A stretch of DNA of 64,000 nt from a virus (lineage: Duplodnaviria; Caudoviricetes): positions 1 to 64,000 of the IMG/VR virus record IMGVR_UViG_3300037067_015270. One strand, written 5' to 3'. The notes below the pieces were generated by a model. The model did not search any database, had not been told where the DNA came from, and worked only from the letters and a program-made list of their open reading frames with translations. Positions 4,618 to 36,739 of the stretch are shown here, piece by piece. Made by a program: the position numbers and the translations under genes. Numbering within the stretch: position 1 is the stretch's first letter; the number at the start of each line of letters is the position of its first letter.

Positions 4618-7600
4618 CTATGTCTCTGCGGTCAATATGCCATCCGTGAATGTCAACATCCTTGTTGGACTACCACCGCTTGAATCTGAGACATAATAGG
4701 TCTTAGTGCCAGATAATCCACCAGTTGGACCTGTAGCACCAGTTGGACCTGTAGCACCAACAGGTCCGGATGCACCACCAGTATCTCCCTGTGGACCAGT
4801 TGCACCAGATGCACCGCTAGCACCATCAATTCCAGTAGCGCCGGTTAAGCCAGTTGCCCCAGAAGCTCCATCAACACCTGTTGCACCAGAAGCTCCATCG
4901 ATCCCTATAGGACCAGTAGCACCTGAAGCACCATCAATCCCTGTTGCACCAGTTGATCCGACAGGTCCTGATGCACCACCAGTATCACCTTGGATGCCAG
5001 TTGCACCAGTTAAACCAGTAGCTCCATCAATTCCTGTGGCACCGGTAAAACCAGTAGCGCCAGATGCACCGCTAGCCCCATCAATCCCTGTAGATCCGAT
5101 TAAGCCAGTAGCACCAGTAGCCCCGGACGCTCCATCAATTCCAGTTGCCCCGGTTAAGCCAGTAGCACCAGAAGCGCCGCTAGCTCCATATGGACCAGAA
5201 GCACCACCAGTTTCACCCTGGATGCCGGTTGCACCAGTGAATCCTGTAGCACCAGATGCTCCGTCGATTCCGGTTGCACCGGTTAAGCCAGTATCACCAG
5301 TGAATCCAGTGAATCCTGTAGCACCAGATGCTCCGTCGATTCCGGTTGCACCGGTTAAGCCAGTACCAGTTGCACCGGTTAAACCCGTTGCTCCTGAAGC
5401 CCCATCAACACCAGTGGCACCAGAAGCACCACTAGCTCCGTCAATTCCAGTCGCACCAGTGCCCGTGGCACCAGTAAGACCGGTGGAACCAGTAAGACCG
5501 GTATAACCAGTGAAACCGGTAGCGCCTGTTAAGCCAGTACCGGTAGCACCAATTGCACCAGACGCTCCCTGAACGCCCGTCGCACCAGAAGCACCGCTAG
5601 CTCCATCAATCCCAGTGGCTCCGGACGCTCCGGTTAAACCTGAAGCTCCATCAATTCCGGTCGCACCAGAAGCTCCGGATGCTCCATCAATACCAGTCGC
5701 ACCAGTTAAACCAGACGCACCTTGAACACCTGTAGCACCAGAAGCTCCGGATGCTCCATCAATGCCGGTCGCGCCAGTTAAACCAGACGCACCAGTTAAA
5801 CCAGATGCCCCCTGGATACCTGTAGCCCCAGACGCACCAGTATCACCAGTAGCACCAACTGGACCACCGTAAGGACCAGACGCACCCGTTAAACCCGTTG
5901 AACCAGTTAAACCTGTTGCACCCACGCCTGTCGAACCCGTAGGACCCGTAGCACCTATACCACTAGCACCAGCAGAGCCACTAGCGCCAGCAGAGCCAGT
6001 AGCACCGGAAGCACCAGAGGCTCCAGAAGCACCATTTATAGCGAGCCCGGTTGCACCAGTAGAGCCACCGACACCCGTTGAACCGGTAGCCCCGGTAGGA
6101 CCACCAGCAGGGCCAGTAGCACCCGAGGCACCGATGACGCTTACTCCTGTGGCACCAGTGGAACCTGCAGCCCCAGCAGTACCCGTAGCACCAGACGCAC
6201 CAAGACCGGTTGCTCCAATAGGACCACCACTTGGACCAGTAGCACCTGCAATACCTGTCGACCCAGTCGAACCAGCAGTACCAGTCAAACCGGTAGCACC
6301 AGTATATCCTATACCTGTTGCACCTGTCGCACCACCAGCTCCTGTTGTACCAGCTATACCAGTTGAGCCCGTCGAACCTGTCGGGCCAGAGGCACCTCCT
6401 GTCGGGCCGGTCGCACCAGCAGGACCACTAGGGCCAGTAGCTCCATCACCAAGTGGGCCAGATGCGCCAGTAGCACCAGTGGGACCAATGGGACCTGACG
6501 CACCGCCTGTATCACCTTGCAAGCCAGTAGCACCGGATGCTCCAATACCTGTGGCACCAGTTAGACCAATGCCTGTTGAACCGGTAGCACCAATAGGACC
6601 ACCGGCAGGACCTGTAGCACCAGTTAGGCCAATGCCTGTTGAACCTGTGGAACCTGTTGGACCACCAGAAGGACCAGTTGCACCAGATAAACCAGTAGCA
6701 CCAGTAGAACCGGTGAGGCCAGTGCCAGTAGCACCTCTTGGACCGCTAATACCAGTAGCACCAGTAGCGCCAACAGGACCGCCAGAAGGACCTGTGGCAC
6801 CTGTTTCTCCCGTAGCACCAGAAGCACCAAGGCCGGTCGCTCCAACGGGGCCGACAGGTCCGGTAGGGCCCTCAGAACCAGTTGAACCAGTAGCACCAGT
6901 CGGGCCACCACTAGGGCCGGTTGCACCTACTACACCAGCTGGGCCAGTTGCACCGTAAACGCCAGTTGAAGACCAAGACAAGTTTCTTAATCCATCAGTA
7001 ACTAAAACTTGTCCGATTGTTCCGTCTATATTCGGGAACTTCAAATTACTAATAATGACGTTCTTACCAGTGCCCCAAGCTGCAAGTAATAAATCTTGAT
7101 TTGTAGCCGAGTGTATCGAGTCGGTTTGTAGCCCATTAACATCGCTATATGTTAAGCCGGAACTGTCGGTTAAACGTCCGTTCGTAGTAGCAAAAGGAAT
7201 TCTATTTGGCGTTAATTTTGTCCCATCGTTTAAAACAAATCCCTTCCTGGCACCATCAGTCGTAATAGTAAAATAAAGGTCGTCAACTTTGAATTCAGTA
7301 ACACCTGGTTCCGGAACAGCTAGGACATCGCCAGTAGTTAGTTTAAATGGTCCTTTTCCAGCCTCAGAAGAGCCAGCTGGGATGTGTAGTCTTGCTGTCG
7401 GATTGTATTCTCCGATACCGACTTGTTCACCGTCAATTATGGTACCACCATCTCTGATCAGTGTCGCAACGTTATAAAAGTTTGTTAAGCGATAGGCATC
7501 ATAAATCGGTACTCCGGCACTGTCTGTTAAAGTAACAGTGCCAAGCCATCTATGCCCCTTATAAACACCAGACGCGGTATAAACTGGCACGCCATCTAGT

Positions 7601-13006: not shown

Positions 13007-13327
13007 ATGAGCCTAGATACTATCACAATCGTTCGAGAAATTCCAATTATTAATGGATATTGTTCGTTGGAAAACAACAATCCAGCGAACAAGACATCTG
13101 TGCCAGTAGCTGCTTTCATCGCGGCAACTGGCGGTGTTGTCAACAGACTATCACAAGCTAGTGGTACCGGCAGAAATGGACGCAGGCATGGTATACAGGA
13201 ATGGGTGGAGTTCTACGAAGAAGTAGCTTGTTGTCAGGGAGATGCAGCATTGGAAGCTGGTAAGACTTTATACCAAACCAATGAGCGTACCGACGAAGAG
13301 ATAGCGTGGAACACTAGTCGGCAGTAG
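13007..13327 (+). CDS. hypothetical protein
   Basis: 106-aa ORF directly after the previous gene. Confidence 0.6.
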   Translation: MSLDTITIVREIPIINGYCSLENNNPANKTSVPVAAFIAATGGVVNRLSQASGTGRNGRRHGIQEWVEFYEEVACCQGDAALEAGKTLYQTNERTDEEIAWNTSRQ

Positions 13328-13892: not shown

Positions 13893-13928
13893 CCTGTAGC
13901 CACCTGGAAACAAGCAACGCGACAATAA
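13893..13928 (-). CRISPR. orphan degenerate CRISPR repeat
   Basis: CCTGTAGCCACCTGGAAAC matches array repeat CCTGTAGTCACCTGGAAAC at 18/19 positions. Confidence 0.75.
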
Positions 13929-13951: not shown

Positions 13952-14479
13952 CTAAGCCATTTGCGGCCTTCTTTTCTTGAGCAGATCTCGTAAGTGATCG
14001 TTTTCGGCTTCGAGTTGTTTGATTCTTTCCATTAGTTCGTCAATAATAGCACTCATTCGTGCCTTTTCGCGACGAGCTACAGCATATGGATCTTCTCGTT
14101 TCTTTGGTGTTGTCGGCTGAGCGTTTTCAGCTTTGCTTGCTCTATTCTTGGCCTCATTATCGTCTAAGACCCTTTGTAACATTTGATATAACTTACCATT
14201 TGCCCATTGTTCCTCGTCCGGGAAATGGTCTAGAACAAGCTTCAATTCATAGAATGTTGCACAAAGGTCGTCGACGTATTCGTCAAGAATACTGAGCAAC
14301 TTATCGTCGTCGAACATGTTGTGATCGCTTCGAAAATCCTGATCATGGTAGACCTTCGTGAGCAACGTAATACGATGGTAAGCGTTACTGCCGCTCTGCT
14401 GTCGAAGTTCCTTGGCTTCCAACAATAAGCTTTTGTATGTCTTCGCGGACTCTTGATTCGTCTGTTTTGTCGATTTCAT
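13952..14479 (-). CDS. hypothetical coiled-coil protein downstream of CRISPR array 1
   Basis: 175-aa ORF with GGAG RBS. Confidence 0.7.
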   Translation of the reverse strand: MKSTKQTNQESAKTYKSLLLEAKELRQQSGSNAYHRITLLTKVYHDQDFRSDHNMFDDDKLLSILDEYVDDLCATFYELKLVLDHFPDEEQWANGKLYQMLQRVLDDNEAKNRASKAENAQPTTPKKREDPYAVARREKARMSAIIDELMERIKQLEAENDHLRDLLKKRRPQMA

Positions 14480-14630
14480 TAATAGTTCTCCTCAATCGTT
14501 TGTGGAAACCAGATAAATGGTAACATTCTCTACTACAATACTTCTGTTTGCCAGTCAATGGCATCTTACATATTGGACACAATTTACCTGAACGGGCAGC
14601 CATTTCTTCTGGCTCATATTCTGTAGTCAC
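14385..14630 (-). CDS. possible small Zn-ribbon protein
   Basis: CPIC...KYCSREC motif, but it overlaps the next gene by ~95 nt and its GTG start lies in a repeat fragment. Confidence 0.35.
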   Translation of the reverse strand: MTTEYEPEEMAARSGKLCPICKMPLTGKQKYCSRECYHLSGFHKRLRRTINEIDKTDESRVREDIQKLIVGSQGTSTAERQ

Positions 14631-14633
14631 CTG

Positions 14634-15145
14634 CCTGTAGTCACCTGGAAACGAACGCTATTTAACATTTCGCGTGTTTCTCGTCGTGTCCTGTAGTCAC
14701 CTGGGAACGAACGCTATTTAACATTCTAGCAGCCGAACAGAAATCCTGTAATCACCTGGGAACGAACGCAAATCGACACTGCTCTGTAGTCGATATTCAA
14801 TATTGACCAAGACCCCGAATTGCTGTATGGGAATAATCCCTGTAGTCACCTGGAAACGAACGCTATTTAACTTCAACCGGAAAACCGCAAGCGTTTTCGG
14901 CCTGTAGTCACCTGGAAACGAACGCTATTTAACATTTCAAAAAGACGACAGCGGTTTTTCCCGACCCTGTAGTCACCTGGAAACGAACGCTATTTAACAT
15001 TTGTCCTCTGGGAACGAACGCTATTTAACATTTCGCGTGTTTCTCGTTGTGTCCTGTAGTCACCTGGAAATGAACGCTATTTAACATTTGTTGCATCGCT
15101 CGTGTTTCTCCTGTAGTCACCTGGAAACGAACGCTATTTAACATT
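14634..15145 (-). CRISPR. CRISPR array 1 (36-nt repeat; 8 full-length copies, one degenerate, plus fragments)
   Basis: Plus-strand repeat CCTGTAGTCACCTGGAAACGAACGCTATTTAACATT at 14634, 14690, 14745 (degenerate), 14839, 14901, 14966, 15053 and 15110, with partial copies at ~14784 and ~15008. Clean spacers are 19-29 nt. The array starts 11 nt after the stop codon of the 401-aa gene. Confidence 0.95.
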
Positions 15146-15156
15146 ACGCTGATGGG

Positions 15157-16362
15157 TTATCCAGCCATCCTCTTACGCTTACACTCGCCGACACGCCGAA
15201 CAACAACATCAATATCGACCTTGTTGCAAGCCTTTTGAATCAGCGAACTCATTTGTTGCCAATCCCATCGAGTTGATTCCATATCGCAATCACGTACACG
15301 ACCGATTTTTTCCATGCATCGGTCGTCGCGTGTATCGCCAACAGGCTCAAATACCACAAGCCGACCTATACCTGCAAGACGGAGCCGCCTGACCATTTCG
15401 TTGGCGAGATGGATATTCCACGTCTTGACGAAATCTCGCCATCGCCGCGTCAACTTCTCTCGGCTACTGATCGCGACTTTCCGCTTCCTTTTGCCAGCAT
15501 TACAGACACGCTGGATTGTTAGAGACTTGCGAGTATAACCAATATCGTTACCACGGCGCAAACGAGTACTCGTTCTGCCATTAATGCGAAACAAAATCGG
15601 ACGTGCGAATCCGCCAGACAAGAAAGCCGTCTTATTCTTGTCGATTGGTAGCTTTACCTTTGGGATAGAATGGCAAATCTGAGCATACCATTTGCCGTCG
15701 CGTTCGAGTAAATCGACGCCCTTGATATCCCATTCTTTGGCAGCAATCTTCCAAAGCATATCACGAATGGAATGAAGACGATAATCTTTGGTCTTGATTT
15801 TGAAGACCATCACGGTATCATCTAGACACGCCTGTAACTTCCAATCACCATCGTCTGCGTCAGGTATGATGATGTGGCAGTCGCTTGTGTAAAACGGAAT
15901 TATACCGCGTTTAGAAGATTGTGGCAATTCACCAAGTCCGGATAGAACAATCATCCATCGAGGATAGGCCGACTTGATGCCGGACTTCCTGATCAGATTC
16001 TTCATCGCCTTGTTGATTGCCAATTGAATCTGCTTCGTGTCGTAGTCGGGATGCGATTCGGCGATAATGGCACGAAGCCGGTCGTTCATTTCAGGGCTAC
16101 ATGGATCGACAGGACATCGGGTACGGGGACCGACCCGACTGGCCGGGTCATATAACCATTGTCTATCGTGCGCCATCCATTCTCGGACGACCAAATGGTT
16201 GCCTGCTTCATAATGAAGACGGAGCCAAGTAGCTGCGAAATCATTCGTGCACTGCTGGATTTTGGTGGCGAGAGTAGACAGAAGCTTCTTTTCTGCTGCG
16301 AAGTCTCCGTCGCTACCAATTAAGTCAACCCTTTTGTTCTTGACGATTCGTTGTAATCCCAT
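15157..16362 (-). CDS. cas12f: Cas12f-like (type V-F/TnpB family) effector, predicted nuclease-dead, 401 aa
   Basis: Motifs IIPFY, LWKIAAKEWDIKGVDLL..GKWYAQICH, KTAFLSGG (RuvC-I Asp replaced by S249), GRLVVFEP, WDWQQM..LIQKAC. Ends before the Zn finger and RuvC-III. Flanked by an array and a tracrRNA-like gene. Confidence 0.85.
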   Translation of the reverse strand: MGLQRIVKNKRVDLIGSDGDFAAEKKLLSTLATKIQQCTNDFAATWLRLHYEAGNHLVVREWMAHDRQWLYDPASRVGPRTRCPVDPCSPEMNDRLRAIIAESHPDYDTKQIQLAINKAMKNLIRKSGIKSAYPRWMIVLSGLGELPQSSKRGIIPFYTSDCHIIIPDADDGDWKLQACLDDTVMVFKIKTKDYRLHSIRDMLWKIAAKEWDIKGVDLLERDGKWYAQICHSIPKVKLPIDKNKTAFLSGGFARPILFRINGRTSTRLRRGNDIGYTRKSLTIQRVCNAGKRKRKVAISSREKLTRRWRDFVKTWNIHLANEMVRRLRLAGIGRLVVFEPVGDTRDDRCMEKIGRVRDCDMESTRWDWQQMSSLIQKACNKVDIDVVVRRVGECKRKRMAG

Positions 16363-16374
16363 CTAGCTCTCTCC

Positions 16375-16473
16375 AAAATAAAGGTGACTCTGGCGAGGGC
16401 TAACACGGTACGAAATGCCCGCAGCTATTCTCGCCTTCGAGACGTACAGGACGCCTCTGGTTGAGTCTTGTTT
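16375..16473 (-). ncRNA. tracrRNA-like RNA, copy 1
   Basis: One of three near-identical elements. Upstream -10 TACAAT (16477-16482), hairpin with a CCUGU loop, GGCGAG/CUCGCC stem, 3' AGUCACCU then a U-run. Both anti-repeat parts are complementary to the repeat 3' end AGGUGACUACAGG. Confidence 0.8.
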
Positions 16474-16508
16474 CATATTGTAGTACGAAAAAGGAATTGG
16501 TTAATTGC

Positions 16509-16704
16509 CCTGTAATCGTTGCACAACGCCCTGTAATCACCTGGGAACAAGCAGAAGAACGAGGCCCTGTAGTCACATGGGAACGAGAGGTACTCTCCAT
16601 TTTCGACTTTTATTCGTGTAAGGTTCAAGTTCTGTAGTCACCTTGGAACGAACGGTACTCTCTATTAGACTCGACAAGAACGTATCGATGCCGCTCCTGT
16701 AGTC
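16509..16704 (-). CRISPR. degenerate mini-array downstream of tracrRNA copy 2
   Basis: Repeat variants at 16509 (fragment), 16530, 16566, 16631 and 16696 (3' 9 nt only); two 29-nt spacers (16602-16630, 16667-16695). Confidence 0.75.
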
Positions 16705-16797
16705 AGGTGACTCTGGCGAGGGCTAACACGGTATGCTAGATCCGCAGCTATTCTCGCCTTCGAGACGTACAGGACGCCTCTGATTGAGTCTTGTTTC
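16667..16797 (-). ncRNA. tracrRNA copy 2 fused to a repeat end and spacer (natural sgRNA candidate)
   Basis: Minus strand reads ...CTCGCCAG-AGTC-ACCT-GACT-ACAGG-[29-nt spacer]; own GTGCTACAAT promoter at 16801-16810. Confidence 0.7.
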
Positions 16798-16857
16798 ATA
16801 ATTGTAGCACGAGTTAACTTGCTGATATTCTTCCCGTCTGATACTTTCCGGAAACTT

Positions 16858-16989
16858 CCTATAATCACCTGGAAACGAGCGCTTGCTTGTGTGTTCGATG
16901 TCCTGTAGCCACCTGGGAACGAACGCTATTCTCCATCAGTTAAACAATTTACATTACGCTGGTAGGTCTATTTGGCCTGTAATCACCTA
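16858..16989 (-). CRISPR. degenerate repeats downstream of the 431-aa gene
   Basis: CCTATAATCACCTGGAAACG (16858), CCTGTAGCCACCTGGGAACGAACGCTATT (16902), CCTGTAATCACCTAG (16976), and a leader-like ACATTACGCTG at ~16951. Confidence 0.65.
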
Positions 16990-16992
16990 GTT

Positions 16993-18288
16993 CTATGCCG
17001 CTTTCAACTTCTTCTTCCGTTCACCAATCTTCCTGACCGTGACCTCGATACCAACAGCCTTGCAGGCTTGTTGTAATAAAAGCTGCATCTGATACCAGTC
17101 CCATCCGGTCGATTCCCTGAGTCCAGGAATCTTCCCAATTTTGGACAGGCATCTCGAATCACGCAAGTCCCCAGCGGGCTGATACACAACGACACGACCT
17201 GTCTTGGATTTGATACACCGTTGCACAACTTCTGCGGCCCATCGGCTATTGGTCGTCTTGACCATATCACGCCATTTCATCCTAATCTTATCGCGCCACT
17301 GTATCGACTTCCTACCGTGTCCTTTCCTGGCACTCGATGCGTATTTGTACGATTCATTCTTACCAAAACGTTGGTTAGTGAGCGACTGCCGTACACGTTC
17401 AATCTGCTTGCCATCGAGGAGGCTCATTAAGGTCCTATCACCGATTCGCAGCATCATACCATTGTGGTATCCCGCAGACACGAAAGCCGTCTTCATGCCG
17501 TCTAACACTGGCTTCTCGACATTTGTAATCTTGTAGCAAATATGGGCATACCACCGACCGTCACGAAGAACGAGTGAAGAAGTGTTAAAAATCCACTCTC
17601 CGGACGCAATCTTCCACAAAGCCTCGCGGATGGTCTTCAAATTGCGACCACCTGTTCGCATCTTGAAGACCATTGGACGTAACGTACGCGTTCCAATCCT
17701 CTTCTCGAAGCGAACTTCCAATTTCCATGGGTCTTTGATGGTCTTCGGAATTATGACGCTGGCGTTCGAAGTATAGAACGGAACCGGCGCTTGTTTTTGT
17801 GCTTGTGGGAATTCACCAAATCCGGAAAGAATCGTCATCCATCGCTTGTAAGCCGATTTCGACGATGGCATCTGAGTGAGAGTCTTCGCGGCAATTTGTG
17901 TGACGATACCGATTGGCTTCGTTCCGAGATTACCATGTTCCTCAGTCAGCAACTTGTAAAGCTGTCTCGACATTGCTGGATCACACGGATTGACAGGGCA
18001 TTTAATACGCGGCGGTGCTCCCTTCTTGCCTTTATAGGCTTTCGCCCATTCCTTATCCTTCTCGATCCATTCTCGAACGGCCAGATGATTTCCGGCTTGC
18101 TGATGCAACCGTAGCCATTGATTGGCGTAATCGTTCACAATCTGTTGCATTTGGATTGCTAATCCGGCGAGACATTTTTTATCTGCTGCGAAGTTGTCAT
18201 CACTACCGGTCAATTCAACGCGAATGATCTTCGTGATGCCATCGGGCTTCTTTTTACGTGGTTTCTTCGCTTCAACTAATTCACTCAT
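16993..18288 (-). CDS. cas12f: Cas12f-like effector, predicted nuclease-dead, 431 aa
   Basis: Colinear with Cas12f1-type motifs: IASGEW...WYAHICY, LDGMKTAFVSAG (D to S271), DGKQIERVRQ..KYASSARKGHGRK, KTTNSRWAAEVV, GRVVVYQP (no RuvC-II Glu), WDWYQMQ..ACKAVGIEV. No CxxC Zn finger or third catalytic Asp. Confidence 0.9.
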   Translation of the reverse strand: MSELVEAKKPRKKKPDGITKIIRVELTGSDDNFAADKKCLAGLAIQMQQIVNDYANQWLRLHQQAGNHLAVREWIEKDKEWAKAYKGKKGAPPRIKCPVNPCDPAMSRQLYKLLTEEHGNLGTKPIGIVTQIAAKTLTQMPSSKSAYKRWMTILSGFGEFPQAQKQAPVPFYTSNASVIIPKTIKDPWKLEVRFEKRIGTRTLRPMVFKMRTGGRNLKTIREALWKIASGEWIFNTSSLVLRDGRWYAHICYKITNVEKPVLDGMKTAFVSAGYHNGMMLRIGDRTLMSLLDGKQIERVRQSLTNQRFGKNESYKYASSARKGHGRKSIQWRDKIRMKWRDMVKTTNSRWAAEVVQRCIKSKTGRVVVYQPAGDLRDSRCLSKIGKIPGLRESTGWDWYQMQLLLQQACKAVGIEVTVRKIGERKKKLKAA

Positions 18289-18333
18289 TTCGTCTCCAAA
18301 ATCACTTTGGACGGTTATCCTCTATAATCATAT

Positions 18334-18428
18334 AAATAAAAGGTGACTCTGGCGAGGGCTAACACGGTATGCTAGATCCGCAGCTATTCTCGCCTTCGAG
18401 ACGTACAGGACGCCTCTGATTGAGTCTT
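18334..18428 (-). ncRNA. tracrRNA-like RNA, copy 3
   Basis: Same element as copies 1 and 2; TGTGCTACAAT extended -10 at 18433-18443; ends AGTCACCTTTTATTT. Confidence 0.8.
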
Positions 18429-18486
18429 CATAATTGTAGCACAAAAAAGGAATTGGTTAACTGGAATTCAATCTATTCATCGAGCC

Positions 18487-18990
18487 TCTGCAGTCACCTG
18501 GGAACGAACGCCATTTACAACCTTTCCGAGAACGAATCGACGATGCCCTGTAGTCCTGTAGTTACCTGGAACGAACACTATTCGGCTTACTTGATACTCG
18601 ATTGGGCAAGCCCTGTAGTCACCTGAGAACGAACACTATTTAACATTCTACTCACCTGTAGTCGCCTGGGAACGAGTGCTATTCAATATTTGGAATAGTT
18701 ACATTTGTAACGGTCTTAGCCCTGTAGTCACCTGGGAACGAGTGCTATTCAACATTTTGAACTAAAATGAACGATTTAGACAGTCTCCTGTAGTCACCTG
18801 GGAACGAGTGCTATTCAACATTCGCCGTGTTCTCCTGTAGTCACCTGGGAACGAGTGCTATTCAACATTCGCCTTTGCAGTTTAGCGCCCCTGTAGTCAC
18901 CTGGGAACGAGTGCTATTCAACATTCGATATCCGCATGACCCTTAAGTACGGCACCTGTAGTCACCTGGGAACGAGTGCTATTCAACATT
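18487..18990 (-). CRISPR. CRISPR array 2 (36-nt repeat; 7 good and 2-3 degenerate copies)
   Basis: CCTGTAGTCACCTGGGAACGAGTGCTATTCAACATT at 18721, 18787, 18834, 18890 and 18955, with variants at 18655, 18612, 18555 and 18487. Spacers are 29, 20, 11, 30, 30 and 7 nt from the leader end. Degeneration increases leftward, so the leader is on the right. Confidence 0.95.
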
Positions 18991-19095
18991 ACGCCAATGG
19001 GTGGTGTGTTGAATAGCACTCTGATTTGTTATAGCACAACAACGATGCTTATTAATTTAACAGGATATTAATTCTGTCCGGTGTCGTGCTATAAT
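18991..19095. promoter_or_regulatory. array-2 leader with anti-repeat and divergent extended -10 promoters
   Basis: TGTTGAATAGCACTC (19007-19021) is the reverse complement of repeat nt 20-34. Minus-strand TGTGCTATAAC at ~19027-19037; plus-strand GTGCTATAAT at 19086-19095. Confidence 0.65.
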
Positions 19096-19100
19096 TGAGT

Positions 19101-19799
19101 ATGAAGCTCAATAAGCGATACATCTATCCGCCCCGTCCAACTAAAAATGCCATTCCATTCTCCGAAATAGGGGTATACTCACAATACGGGTGGGTGGCAC
19201 AATTGAAGGTGAACGATCTTCGTACCGAATTCAGTATAGCTGGAGATGATGTCGAGTTCTTCAATCGCCACAACGGTAAGCATCAACCGAACCGTATCCC
19301 ACAATATATGGCAACAGAAGTCCTTGAGATCTGCAGAAAATTGGGCTTCGGTGTTGATGGATGGAATTATCTTGACGGTGGTCTAATGTGTTGTAAGAAT
19401 CGCCAGGTCTCAGGGATTGCAGCCATTTGGGATATTTTAGTGCTGCAGGGGGAGTGGCTCTTGGATACCACTTACCAATATCGCTATGACCTGATCGCTC
19501 AACAAAACTCAGAGCCGTTTATTATTACGGTCGGCGGCAAGGACTTTGATATTGGGCTCAAATTGAGTGAGCATATTTTTATTCCTCGACTATATGAGGA
19601 TTATAATATTCCGTGGCAACTAGCCAAAGACGTAAATGCCGCTGCCGGTTGGTCTGGTAAAGATGATGGTGAGAACATCTTGGAAGGCGTCGTCTTGAAG
19701 GACACAACCGGTATCTTGAAACCGGACAACGGTAAGGAAGCCAATAATACTTCTTGGGGGGCGCGTTCTAGATTCACCACGGGACGATCGCGCTTCTAA
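19101..19799 (+). CDS. ATP-dependent ligase/capping-enzyme-like nucleotidyltransferase (adenylation domain only)
   Basis: Motif I WVAQLKVNDLR (KxDGxR variant), FFNRH, YLDGGL, WDIL, motif IV EGVVLK; probably a leaderless transcript. Confidence 0.7.
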   Translation: MKLNKRYIYPPRPTKNAIPFSEIGVYSQYGWVAQLKVNDLRTEFSIAGDDVEFFNRHNGKHQPNRIPQYMATEVLEICRKLGFGVDGWNYLDGGLMCCKNRQVSGIAAIWDILVLQGEWLLDTTYQYRYDLIAQQNSEPFIITVGGKDFDIGLKLSEHIFIPRLYEDYNIPWQLAKDVNAAAGWSGKDDGENILEGVVLKDTTGILKPDNGKEANNTSWGARSRFTTGRSRF

Positions 19800-19886
19800 T
19801 TTTCAGCGTGTTTCTTCCGATGACAATTAGCACAAAGCAAATCGCTTAGGATAGTTTGGATTAATAGTAATACTTTGTGGTGCTAT

Positions 19887-20108
19887 ATGAGAGACAAAAC
19901 CAAAAAGATAGAAGAAATCGAACAAACAAATCTCCAACGATTTTGTTCAGAAGTGTTATGCTGTCTGATCTCGAAGGGCTCACGGATGCGTATTAGTCGC
20001 TGCCAATATCTCGAACGCCGTGGCAAAGAACCAGAGGAACTGACGACCAGCGAGAAGATAATCAAGCTAATCTTCTTGGATTGGTTGAAATGTCAACTCC
20101 GGTGGTGA
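19887..20108 (+). CDS. hypothetical protein
   Basis: short ORF (MRDKTK...) after GTGCTAT. Confidence 0.45.
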   Translation: MRDKTKKIEEIEQTNLQRFCSEVLCCLISKGSRMRISRCQYLERRGKEPEELTTSEKIIKLIFLDWLKCQLRW

Positions 20109-31117: not shown

Positions 31118-31287
31118 GATCTACTCCATGTTTAGAAAATTCTCTGTAGTCGCCTAGTTATAAAATACATAATGTATTTTACTATCAGAGCTCAACAAAT
31201 CAACGCATAGGTGCTATTATCGCAACTACAACACAATTCCCAATCAATCTTGTTATTCCATTAGCTTCTGAAGAAGAGTGTCAGTAT

Positions 31288-36670: not shown

Positions 36671-36739
36671 AGAAATCTCCTTTTCGTATAATTTTGATTA
36701 ACAGAAATCCTGCAATCACCTAGTTATAAATACAATATC

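Follow-up and report, generated by a model that had tools for sequence, protein, structure and literature searches.

The question raised by this locus is whether a phage with a dual-RNA CRISPR system also carries a natural single-guide RNA, that is, a tracrRNA running without a break into a repeat end and a spacer. The window, as the whole stretch of DNA analyzed here is called, comprises 64,000 nucleotides, and its source record, with a length of 122 kb and a completeness of 34%, is part of a large phage. The locus, with a 2060-aa tail-fibre gene nearby, reads in the order array A, tracrRNA copy 3, 431-aa gene, mini-array B, fused tracrRNA copy 2, array C, tracrRNA copy 1, 401-aa gene, array D and a small zinc-finger open reading frame (ORF). 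Apart from copy 2 and the small ORF, its features are:

18486..19020, minus strand: array A, 36-nt repeats, spacers of 7-30 nt
18341..18460, minus strand: tracrRNA copy 3 (scaffold 18341-18436), with promoter and U-run, upstream of the 431-aa gene
16993..18288, minus strand: 431-aa Cas12f-like protein, predicted to be nuclease-dead (AsCas12f 8J12/7WJU, E ~1e-10)
16857..16990, minus strand: mini-array B, two degenerate repeats and a solo mini-repeat, the latter just past the 431-aa stop codon, located upstream of copy 2
16510..16666, minus strand: degenerate array C, two 36-nt repeats followed by partial repeats ending in GATTACAGG
16382..16504, minus strand: tracrRNA copy 1 (scaffold 16382-16477), with a TTAACC-16-TACAAT promoter and a U-run, followed by the Shine-Dalgarno sequence and ATG of the 401-aa gene
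15157..16362, minus strand: 401-aa paralogue of the 431-aa protein, 44% identical to it
14620..15150, minus strand: array D, 36-nt repeats, running into the small zinc-finger ORF

The tracrRNA with its anti-repeat, present in three copies, and the repeats placed 5' of the spacers in four arrays agree with a type V-F system. Copies 1 and 3 finish with ...AGUCACCU and then UUUAUUUU or UUUUAUUU, a U-run, and conventional tracrRNA-plus-array units therefore coexist with the fused one, as the original prediction had it. A megablast search of the locus against GenBank phages gave no match, an Rfam E-value scan of 14000-20000 found no family, and Cas1 (PF01867) had no match in the 122-kb record, which is 34% complete.

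To define the fused unit, the minus strand was read from 16810 to 16631. It consists of a -10 box, a short 5' leader, hairpin 1, hairpin 2, AG, the junction, the spacer and a repeat:

16801..16810, minus strand: extended -10 box gTGcTACAAT of tracrRNA copy 2, with no -35 at canonical spacing
16705..16800, minus strand: scaffold of tracrRNA copy 2 (family D4), with hairpin 1, hairpin 2 and tail anti-repeat
16780-16762, minus strand: hairpin 1, GAGGCGU-CCUGU-ACGUCUC, loop CCUGU at 16773-16769
16758-16715, minus strand: hairpin 2 of the copy 2 scaffold, GGCGAG...CUCGCC
16712-16705, minus strand: tail anti-repeat AGUCACCU of copy 2, AGUC (16712-16709) and ACCU (16708-16705)
16696..16704, minus strand: last 9 nt of the CRISPR repeat, GACUACAGG, abutting the tracrRNA tail, GACU (16704-16701) and ACAGG (16700-16696)
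16667..16695, minus strand: 29-nt spacer (guide) of the fused unit
16666-16631, minus strand: degenerate 36-nt repeat, the first of array C

Copy 2 has no U-run, and its scaffold continues uninterrupted through GACUACAGG and the spacer into more degenerate repeats, exactly in the predicted order AGUC-ACCU-GACU-ACAGG and 29-nt spacer. Scaffold, repeat handle and guide are thus contiguous on one strand with no terminator between them, which is the arrangement of a single guide. GACU is complementary to AGUC, and the minimum-energy fold of 16795-16667 (z = -3.4) contains both hairpins and the proposed AGUC/ACCU/GACU stem-loop of 4 bp with a 4-nt loop. ACAGG, the partner of the CCUGU loop, is kept immediately before the spacer. 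The architecture of an engineered sgRNA claimed for the unit was accordingly recognized in a covalently attached tracrRNA, a truncated repeat and a spacer, with pseudoknot partner and short repeat:anti-repeat hairpin both retained. Three occurrences of the 16-nt tail motif were counted in the window, compared with 0.23 expected by chance. Two further pairings were set aside. A helix P1 between the tracrRNA 5' end (GACUC) and the tail (GAGUC) appeared in single-sequence folds, was absent from the consensus fold and was given no weight, and the pairing of the last 6 nt of the spacer with the tracrRNA 5' end AGACUC in the fold was taken as a probable coincidence.

The pairing scheme was compared across six related lineages at 34-89% protein identity (L088/L009, L001, L006/L012, L013, L002/L010 and L091), which together contain at least 14 further tracrRNA copies. 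The repeat ends in ...AGGUGACUACAGG, of which AGGUGACU is complementary to the tracrRNA tail AGUCACCU and ACAGG to the hairpin 1 loop CCUGU. The tail duplex covaries, being AGUCACCU:AGGUGACU in the window, AGUUACC:GGUAACU in L006, where the tail is AGUUACC and GGUAACU is found in many repeats, and GUCAUACCCC:GGGGUGUGAU in L091, where the tail GUCAUACCCC pairs with GGGGUGUGAU at 34% protein identity. CCUGU and ACAGG are invariant down to this most distant lineage, while the hairpin 1 stem changes by compensation. The predicted split anti-repeat, formed by the tail and the hairpin 1 loop, has comparative support. The fused unit preserves CCUGU, ACAGG and, from the tail duplex, the four pairs nearest the guide (AGUC:GACU); in place of the four distal pairs it has a loop consisting of ACCU from the anti-repeat itself. 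Taken alone, the 4-bp AGUC:GACU hairpin is weak. The 22-nt core of hairpin 1 was also found, without change, upstream of a different gene in L011 and L014 (Ga0157378 and Ga0134121), two unrelated-looking GC-rich contigs.

The two effector genes were compared with known families. In phmmer searches against PDB sequences, the 431-aa protein matched AsCas12f (8J3R/7WJU/8J12) with E-values of 9e-11 to 6e-10 and Cas12f1 (9I8Y) with 4.5e-9, and the 401-aa paralogue matched 9I8Y with 0.0037; these matches place the effectors with Cas12f. Pfam, NCBIfam and PHROGs returned no family for either protein, and there was no Pfam OrfB/TnpB match. The RuvC Asp-Glu-Asp triad was not found. The RuvC-I Asp aligns to Ser (AFVSAGY), and no member of the family of ~22 clusters has an Asp at this position in the alignment. 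At RuvC-II the 431-aa protein has Gln, as do at least 90% of 20 aligned members of the family, and only the 401-aa paralogue has Glu. Both chains stop ~28 residues past the last aligned block, and RuvC-III and the Zn ribbon are therefore missing; likewise, no CxxC pair of a C-terminal Zn ribbon (TNB) is present in the C-terminus. Judged from these motifs, both Cas12f-like effectors are predicted to be unable to cut. Paired paralogues are found in the window, L001, L006 and L088 and single genes in L002 and L091, and a heterodimer of the paired paralogues is possible. No sigma-factor Pfam match was obtained among the five neighbouring ORFs tested.

In every family locus the final repeat of the terminal array contains, or is immediately followed by, the start of a small ORF with a CxxC...YC..C zinc finger:

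14385-14630 of the window, minus strand: small zinc-finger ORF
~7270-7400 of L001: small zinc-finger ORF
~6110-6230 of L002: small zinc-finger ORF
~8810-8940 of L006: small zinc-finger ORF
~4770-4880 of L091: small zinc-finger ORF

Its only Pfam matches were sub-threshold ones to zinc fingers, and it may be an effector partner or a split-off domain.

The arrays of the locus differ in their state of preservation. Arrays B and C are the most degenerate, with 70-78% identity to the repeat consensus, and their repeat type (GGAGAxTAxC) is that found after the tracrRNA genes in L001 and L088 and differs from that of arrays A and D. The final 8 nt of the repeat commonly occur as a tandem duplication (…ACTACAGGACTACAGG…), as at 18548-18565 of the window (minus strand), and are duplicated up to three times in L006 (13122-13141, 12531-12550, 9090-9110, 9030-9046 and 8950-8975); the 'spacers' at these places therefore start with a second ACUACAGG. 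Several short spacers share the motif GAGAAACACG(C/A)G (window 14670-15109 and 18823-18833, minus strand), and two spacers, with guides starting at 15052 and 14689, are near-duplicates. With lengths of 7-30 nt, a shared motif and near-duplicates, the array spacers do not look like an acquisition record, and those sharing the motif had no target in the phage's own 122 kb. Outside the arrays, solo 15-nt mini-repeats CYAGGYGAYTRCAGR were found on the minus strand at 13893-13907, 16976-16990, 31143-31157 and 36709-36723. Those at 31143 and 36709 directly follow a TATAA box, the one at 16976-16990 lies just past the stop codon of the 431-aa gene, and the one at 13893-13907 is located 9 nt before an ATG (13883). 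A mini-repeat handle could form the start of transcripts, giving phage mRNA 5' ends that pair with the tracrRNA.

For the 29-nt spacer of the fused unit, no match with up to three mismatches was found in the phage's own 122 kb, and none in the relatives G001 and G002 (364-kb and 185-kb records). An 18-mer scan of public collections yielded one viral and 72 genome matches, which were rejected as targets and treated as chance, because none of them extended beyond 24 of the 29 bases.

We then considered how the unit might be transcribed. The consensus promoter scan called TTAACC-16-TACAAT promoters for copies 1 and 3 only, and not for copy 2, in which TTAAC stands 5 nt from the -10 instead of 16, while the extended -10 (TGn-TACAAT) is kept. 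The claim that the fused unit has its own promoter is thus only partly supported: the extended -10 at 16810-16801 is present, but the -35 has been lost, with TTAAC at the wrong spacing. Expression by read-through from the upstream 431-aa gene is possible. A terminator scan of 16300-19150 found none, so that copies 1 and 3 are only presumed to terminate at their U-runs.

The fusion junction was found in a second genome. A look-up of the 401-aa protein led to L090, a 5.8-kb contig from a different assembly (ENA ERZ27247363, k141_436989), which is 99.64% identical to positions 18734-12964 of the window. The two differ by six SNPs and one 15-nt indel, all outside the RNA region: two SNPs and the indel lie within the 431-aa gene, and four SNPs near 13100. 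The RNA region itself, including the fusion junction, is identical. The indel is in frame (window 17150, L090 1585-1599), gives proteins of 431 and 436 aa, respectively, and separates otherwise near-identical phage variants. The exact 21-nt junction was absent from collections of viral and metagenome contigs, which may lack the window's record and its near relatives.

In more distant relatives the result was different. None of the at least 14 tracrRNA copies in the six lineages is fused; 13 of 14 end in the tail and a U-run, and the remaining one, the second copy of L013, is cut by the contig end. The U-run is followed either by the Shine-Dalgarno sequence and ATG of an effector gene or by a short conserved leader (...GCGTAATG...) and a complete first repeat. 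The common module of the relatives accordingly consists of promoter, tracrRNA, U-run, a leader of ~20-35 nt ending in ...GCGTAATG, and the first array repeat. Between the effector genes, L088 (89% identity) has only a mini-array, a homologue of mini-array B, and one tracrRNA, and L001 (79%) has only a tracrRNA; neither has a fused unit. Within the window, copies 2 and 3 have the same scaffold sequence through the apical loop GGAUCUAGCAUACC, whereas copy 1 and all relatives have other loop sequences; the identity of copies 2 and 3 speaks for a recent event. A blastn-short search of the relatives for a homologous spacer or an ancestral module returned only repeat matches. In L088 the promoter upstream of the 435-aa gene is present (4960-5010) and the tracrRNA behind it is missing, a tracrRNA-leader-array module being located further upstream of this gene instead. 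Tracr genes are gained and lost quickly in the clade of L088 and the window phage.

These results make it very probable that the fused unit is real and arose as a derived deletion fusion. The simplest history that appears to fit the compared sequences is the formation of a lineage-specific tracrRNA-leader-array module followed by a deletion. By estimate from the homologues in L088 and L001, about 41-61 nt would have been lost in the lineage of the window phage, from just after ACCU to just before GACUACAGG, a stretch comprising the U-run, the leader and 27 nt from the start of repeat 1. Such a deletion, whose mechanism we infer, would join the tracrRNA tail ...AGUCACCU to GACUACAGG and the spacer.

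How far this reading holds depends on four other explanations. The region is repeat-dense and the record is a metagenome assembly, so a junction misassembled at repeated sequence had to be considered. This is very unlikely, because L090, from another assembly and with SNPs elsewhere, has the identical junction; moreover, the joined parts share only an 8-nt inverted match, too short to mislead an assembly with k=141. Scarcely more credible is that the unit is a retained ancestral single guide of the ωRNA type, an intermediate on the way from TnpB to dual-RNA Cas12f. The order of scaffold and then guide does resemble an ωRNA, and the repeat shows loose colinearity with the fused scaffold in its 3' half (GAAUAGC, CUCG, CCAG and GACUACAGG). 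However, the relatives down to 34% protein identity all have separate tracrRNAs and arrays, the nearest of them lack the unit, copy 2 equals copy 3, and the unit does not overlap the 3' end of an effector gene. Of the two histories offered by the original prediction, the retained intermediate is therefore not supported, while a reversion from dual to single RNA agrees with the data in the form of a secondary collapse.

The more serious contender, although we consider it doubtful, is a neutral deletion scar: the module would be a decaying spare one in which the fusion has no role, copy 2 being poorly transcribed or its RNA unused, and the work would be done by copies 1 and 3 and arrays A and D. 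The loss of the -35 is in line with this, and the degeneracy of the flanking arrays B and C, with their partial repeats, fits a decaying module. Other repeat ends in these loci are irregularly truncated or duplicated (GATTACAGG alone, ACTACAGG doubled), no target of the spacer was found in the 122 kb, the relatives or public collections, and the relatives manage without a fused unit. Since the fusion is known from only two genomes, 99.6% identical, its persistence says little about selection. Against a scar, and in support of a working guide, the scaffold is intact and identical to that of copy 3 and the extended -10 is kept; the deletion begins and ends so that no element of recognized importance for Cas12f guides is out of register, and the unit could still be expressed by transcripts reading through from the upstream gene. 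Alternatively, the selected effect might be transcriptional, the loss of the terminator letting the tracrRNA promoter drive array C while the first unit is processed away. In the relatives, arrays directly follow tracrRNA genes, and the short leader between them shows no promoter of its own, so that tracrRNA and array are probably co-transcribed already. This explanation is improbable, as array C has only two full, degenerate repeats and nothing indicates a processing site between ACCU and GACU.

On balance, we lean towards a real, recently derived fusion gene giving one RNA that should load on the dead Cas12f-like proteins and direct binding. One RNA with a full tracrRNA scaffold would arise, either by transcription from the extended -10 that has been kept or by read-through of the 431-aa gene. 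In this RNA AGUC:GACU would be closed by the ACCU loop, ACAGG could still pair with CCUGU and the 29-nt guide would come next; processing at the following repeat would probably define the 3' end. No separate crRNA should be needed for this RNA to load onto the Cas12f-like proteins, and the complex would be expected to bind, and perhaps repress, one fixed target rather than to cut it. That the unit is a used guide has a little less than an even chance. We only tentatively suggest that it is an expressed and selected natural sgRNA, in which tracrRNA and crRNA of an otherwise dual-RNA family have collapsed in a live system. If so, one target would be hard-wired for a phage-encoded, DNA-binding pair of dCas12f-like proteins, and the unit would be direct evidence for the dual-to-single step proposed for dCas12f guides.

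Covalent tracrRNA-crRNA guides are standard in the engineering of Cas12f. Like the sgRNAs engineered for Un1Cas12f (ge3.0-4.1; Kim et al., 2021, PMC8763643) and AsCas12f (PDB 8J12/7WJU), the window unit links tracrRNA scaffold, repeat 3' end and guide covalently, replaces the distal repeat:anti-repeat duplex by a 4-nt loop and keeps the guide-adjacent pairing. In Un1Cas12f sgRNAs, activity was kept or raised even when the whole tracrRNA-crRNA complementary region was truncated (PMC8763643). In contrast to these designs, the window unit is natural and apparently stems from a genomic deletion, its loop is the anti-repeat's own ACCU and not GAAA, its effector lacks nuclease motifs, and its activity as a guide is putative.

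Natural single guides have been published for the dCas12f-σE systems of RNA-guided transcription, for which Hoffmann et al. (Nature 2026, PMC13472631) proposed that an ωRNA was split into crRNA and tracrRNA and then collapsed again to chimeric single guides; one of their loci has both full-length gRNAs and arrays, and no tracrRNA was found (PMC13472631). The window system resembles these in its apparently nuclease-dead Cas12f homologues and in having both guide forms in one locus. Unlike them, it shows no adjacent ECF sigma factor (rpoE), with no sigma-factor match in five tested neighbours, has a bona fide tracrRNA in three copies, is phage-borne and still encodes most of its guides in arrays. 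TnpB ωRNAs, TldR guide RNAs and the TranC intermediates, for which RNA splitting has been described (Wiegand 2024; Jin et al., Cell 2025, as cited in PMC13565253), share with the window unit one RNA with a 5' scaffold and a 3' guide and a compact RuvC-type protein, and TldRs are also nuclease-dead and partly phage-borne. The window unit differs in being derived from tracrRNA and repeat rather than ancestral, and its proteins match Cas12f and not TnpB families; rather than overlapping the effector 3' end as a TnpB ωRNA does, it lies ~190 nt past the 431-aa stop codon, behind the mini-array and with a -10 box of its own. As summarized in PMC13472631, the long-form tracrRNA of S. pyogenes Cas9 (Workman et al., Cell 2021) is likewise a natural single guide beside a dual-RNA pathway that directs binding and not cutting. 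It belongs to type II, however, carries its guide in the tracrRNA 5' end and targets the cas9 promoter, whereas the window spacer has no match to the phage's own locus. The window unit is set apart from published single guides by being phage-borne, by the lack of a sigma factor in the tested neighbours, by the multicopy tracrRNA and by the parental and collapsed forms standing side by side.

Even if it is nothing more than a scar, the fusion is an example of recombination, as opposed to Cas1-Cas2 acquisition, altering the arrays of these phages. If it is functional, one small deletion turns a dual-RNA type V system into a single-guide one in nature, a step that has been proposed for the origin of dCas12f single guides and not observed in progress. 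Since the parental state (the unfused copies 1 and 3) and the derived state are found in one genome, they can be compared directly, and the fused unit offers a natural minimal linker, 4 bp and ACCU, for guide design in this compact DNA-binding family.
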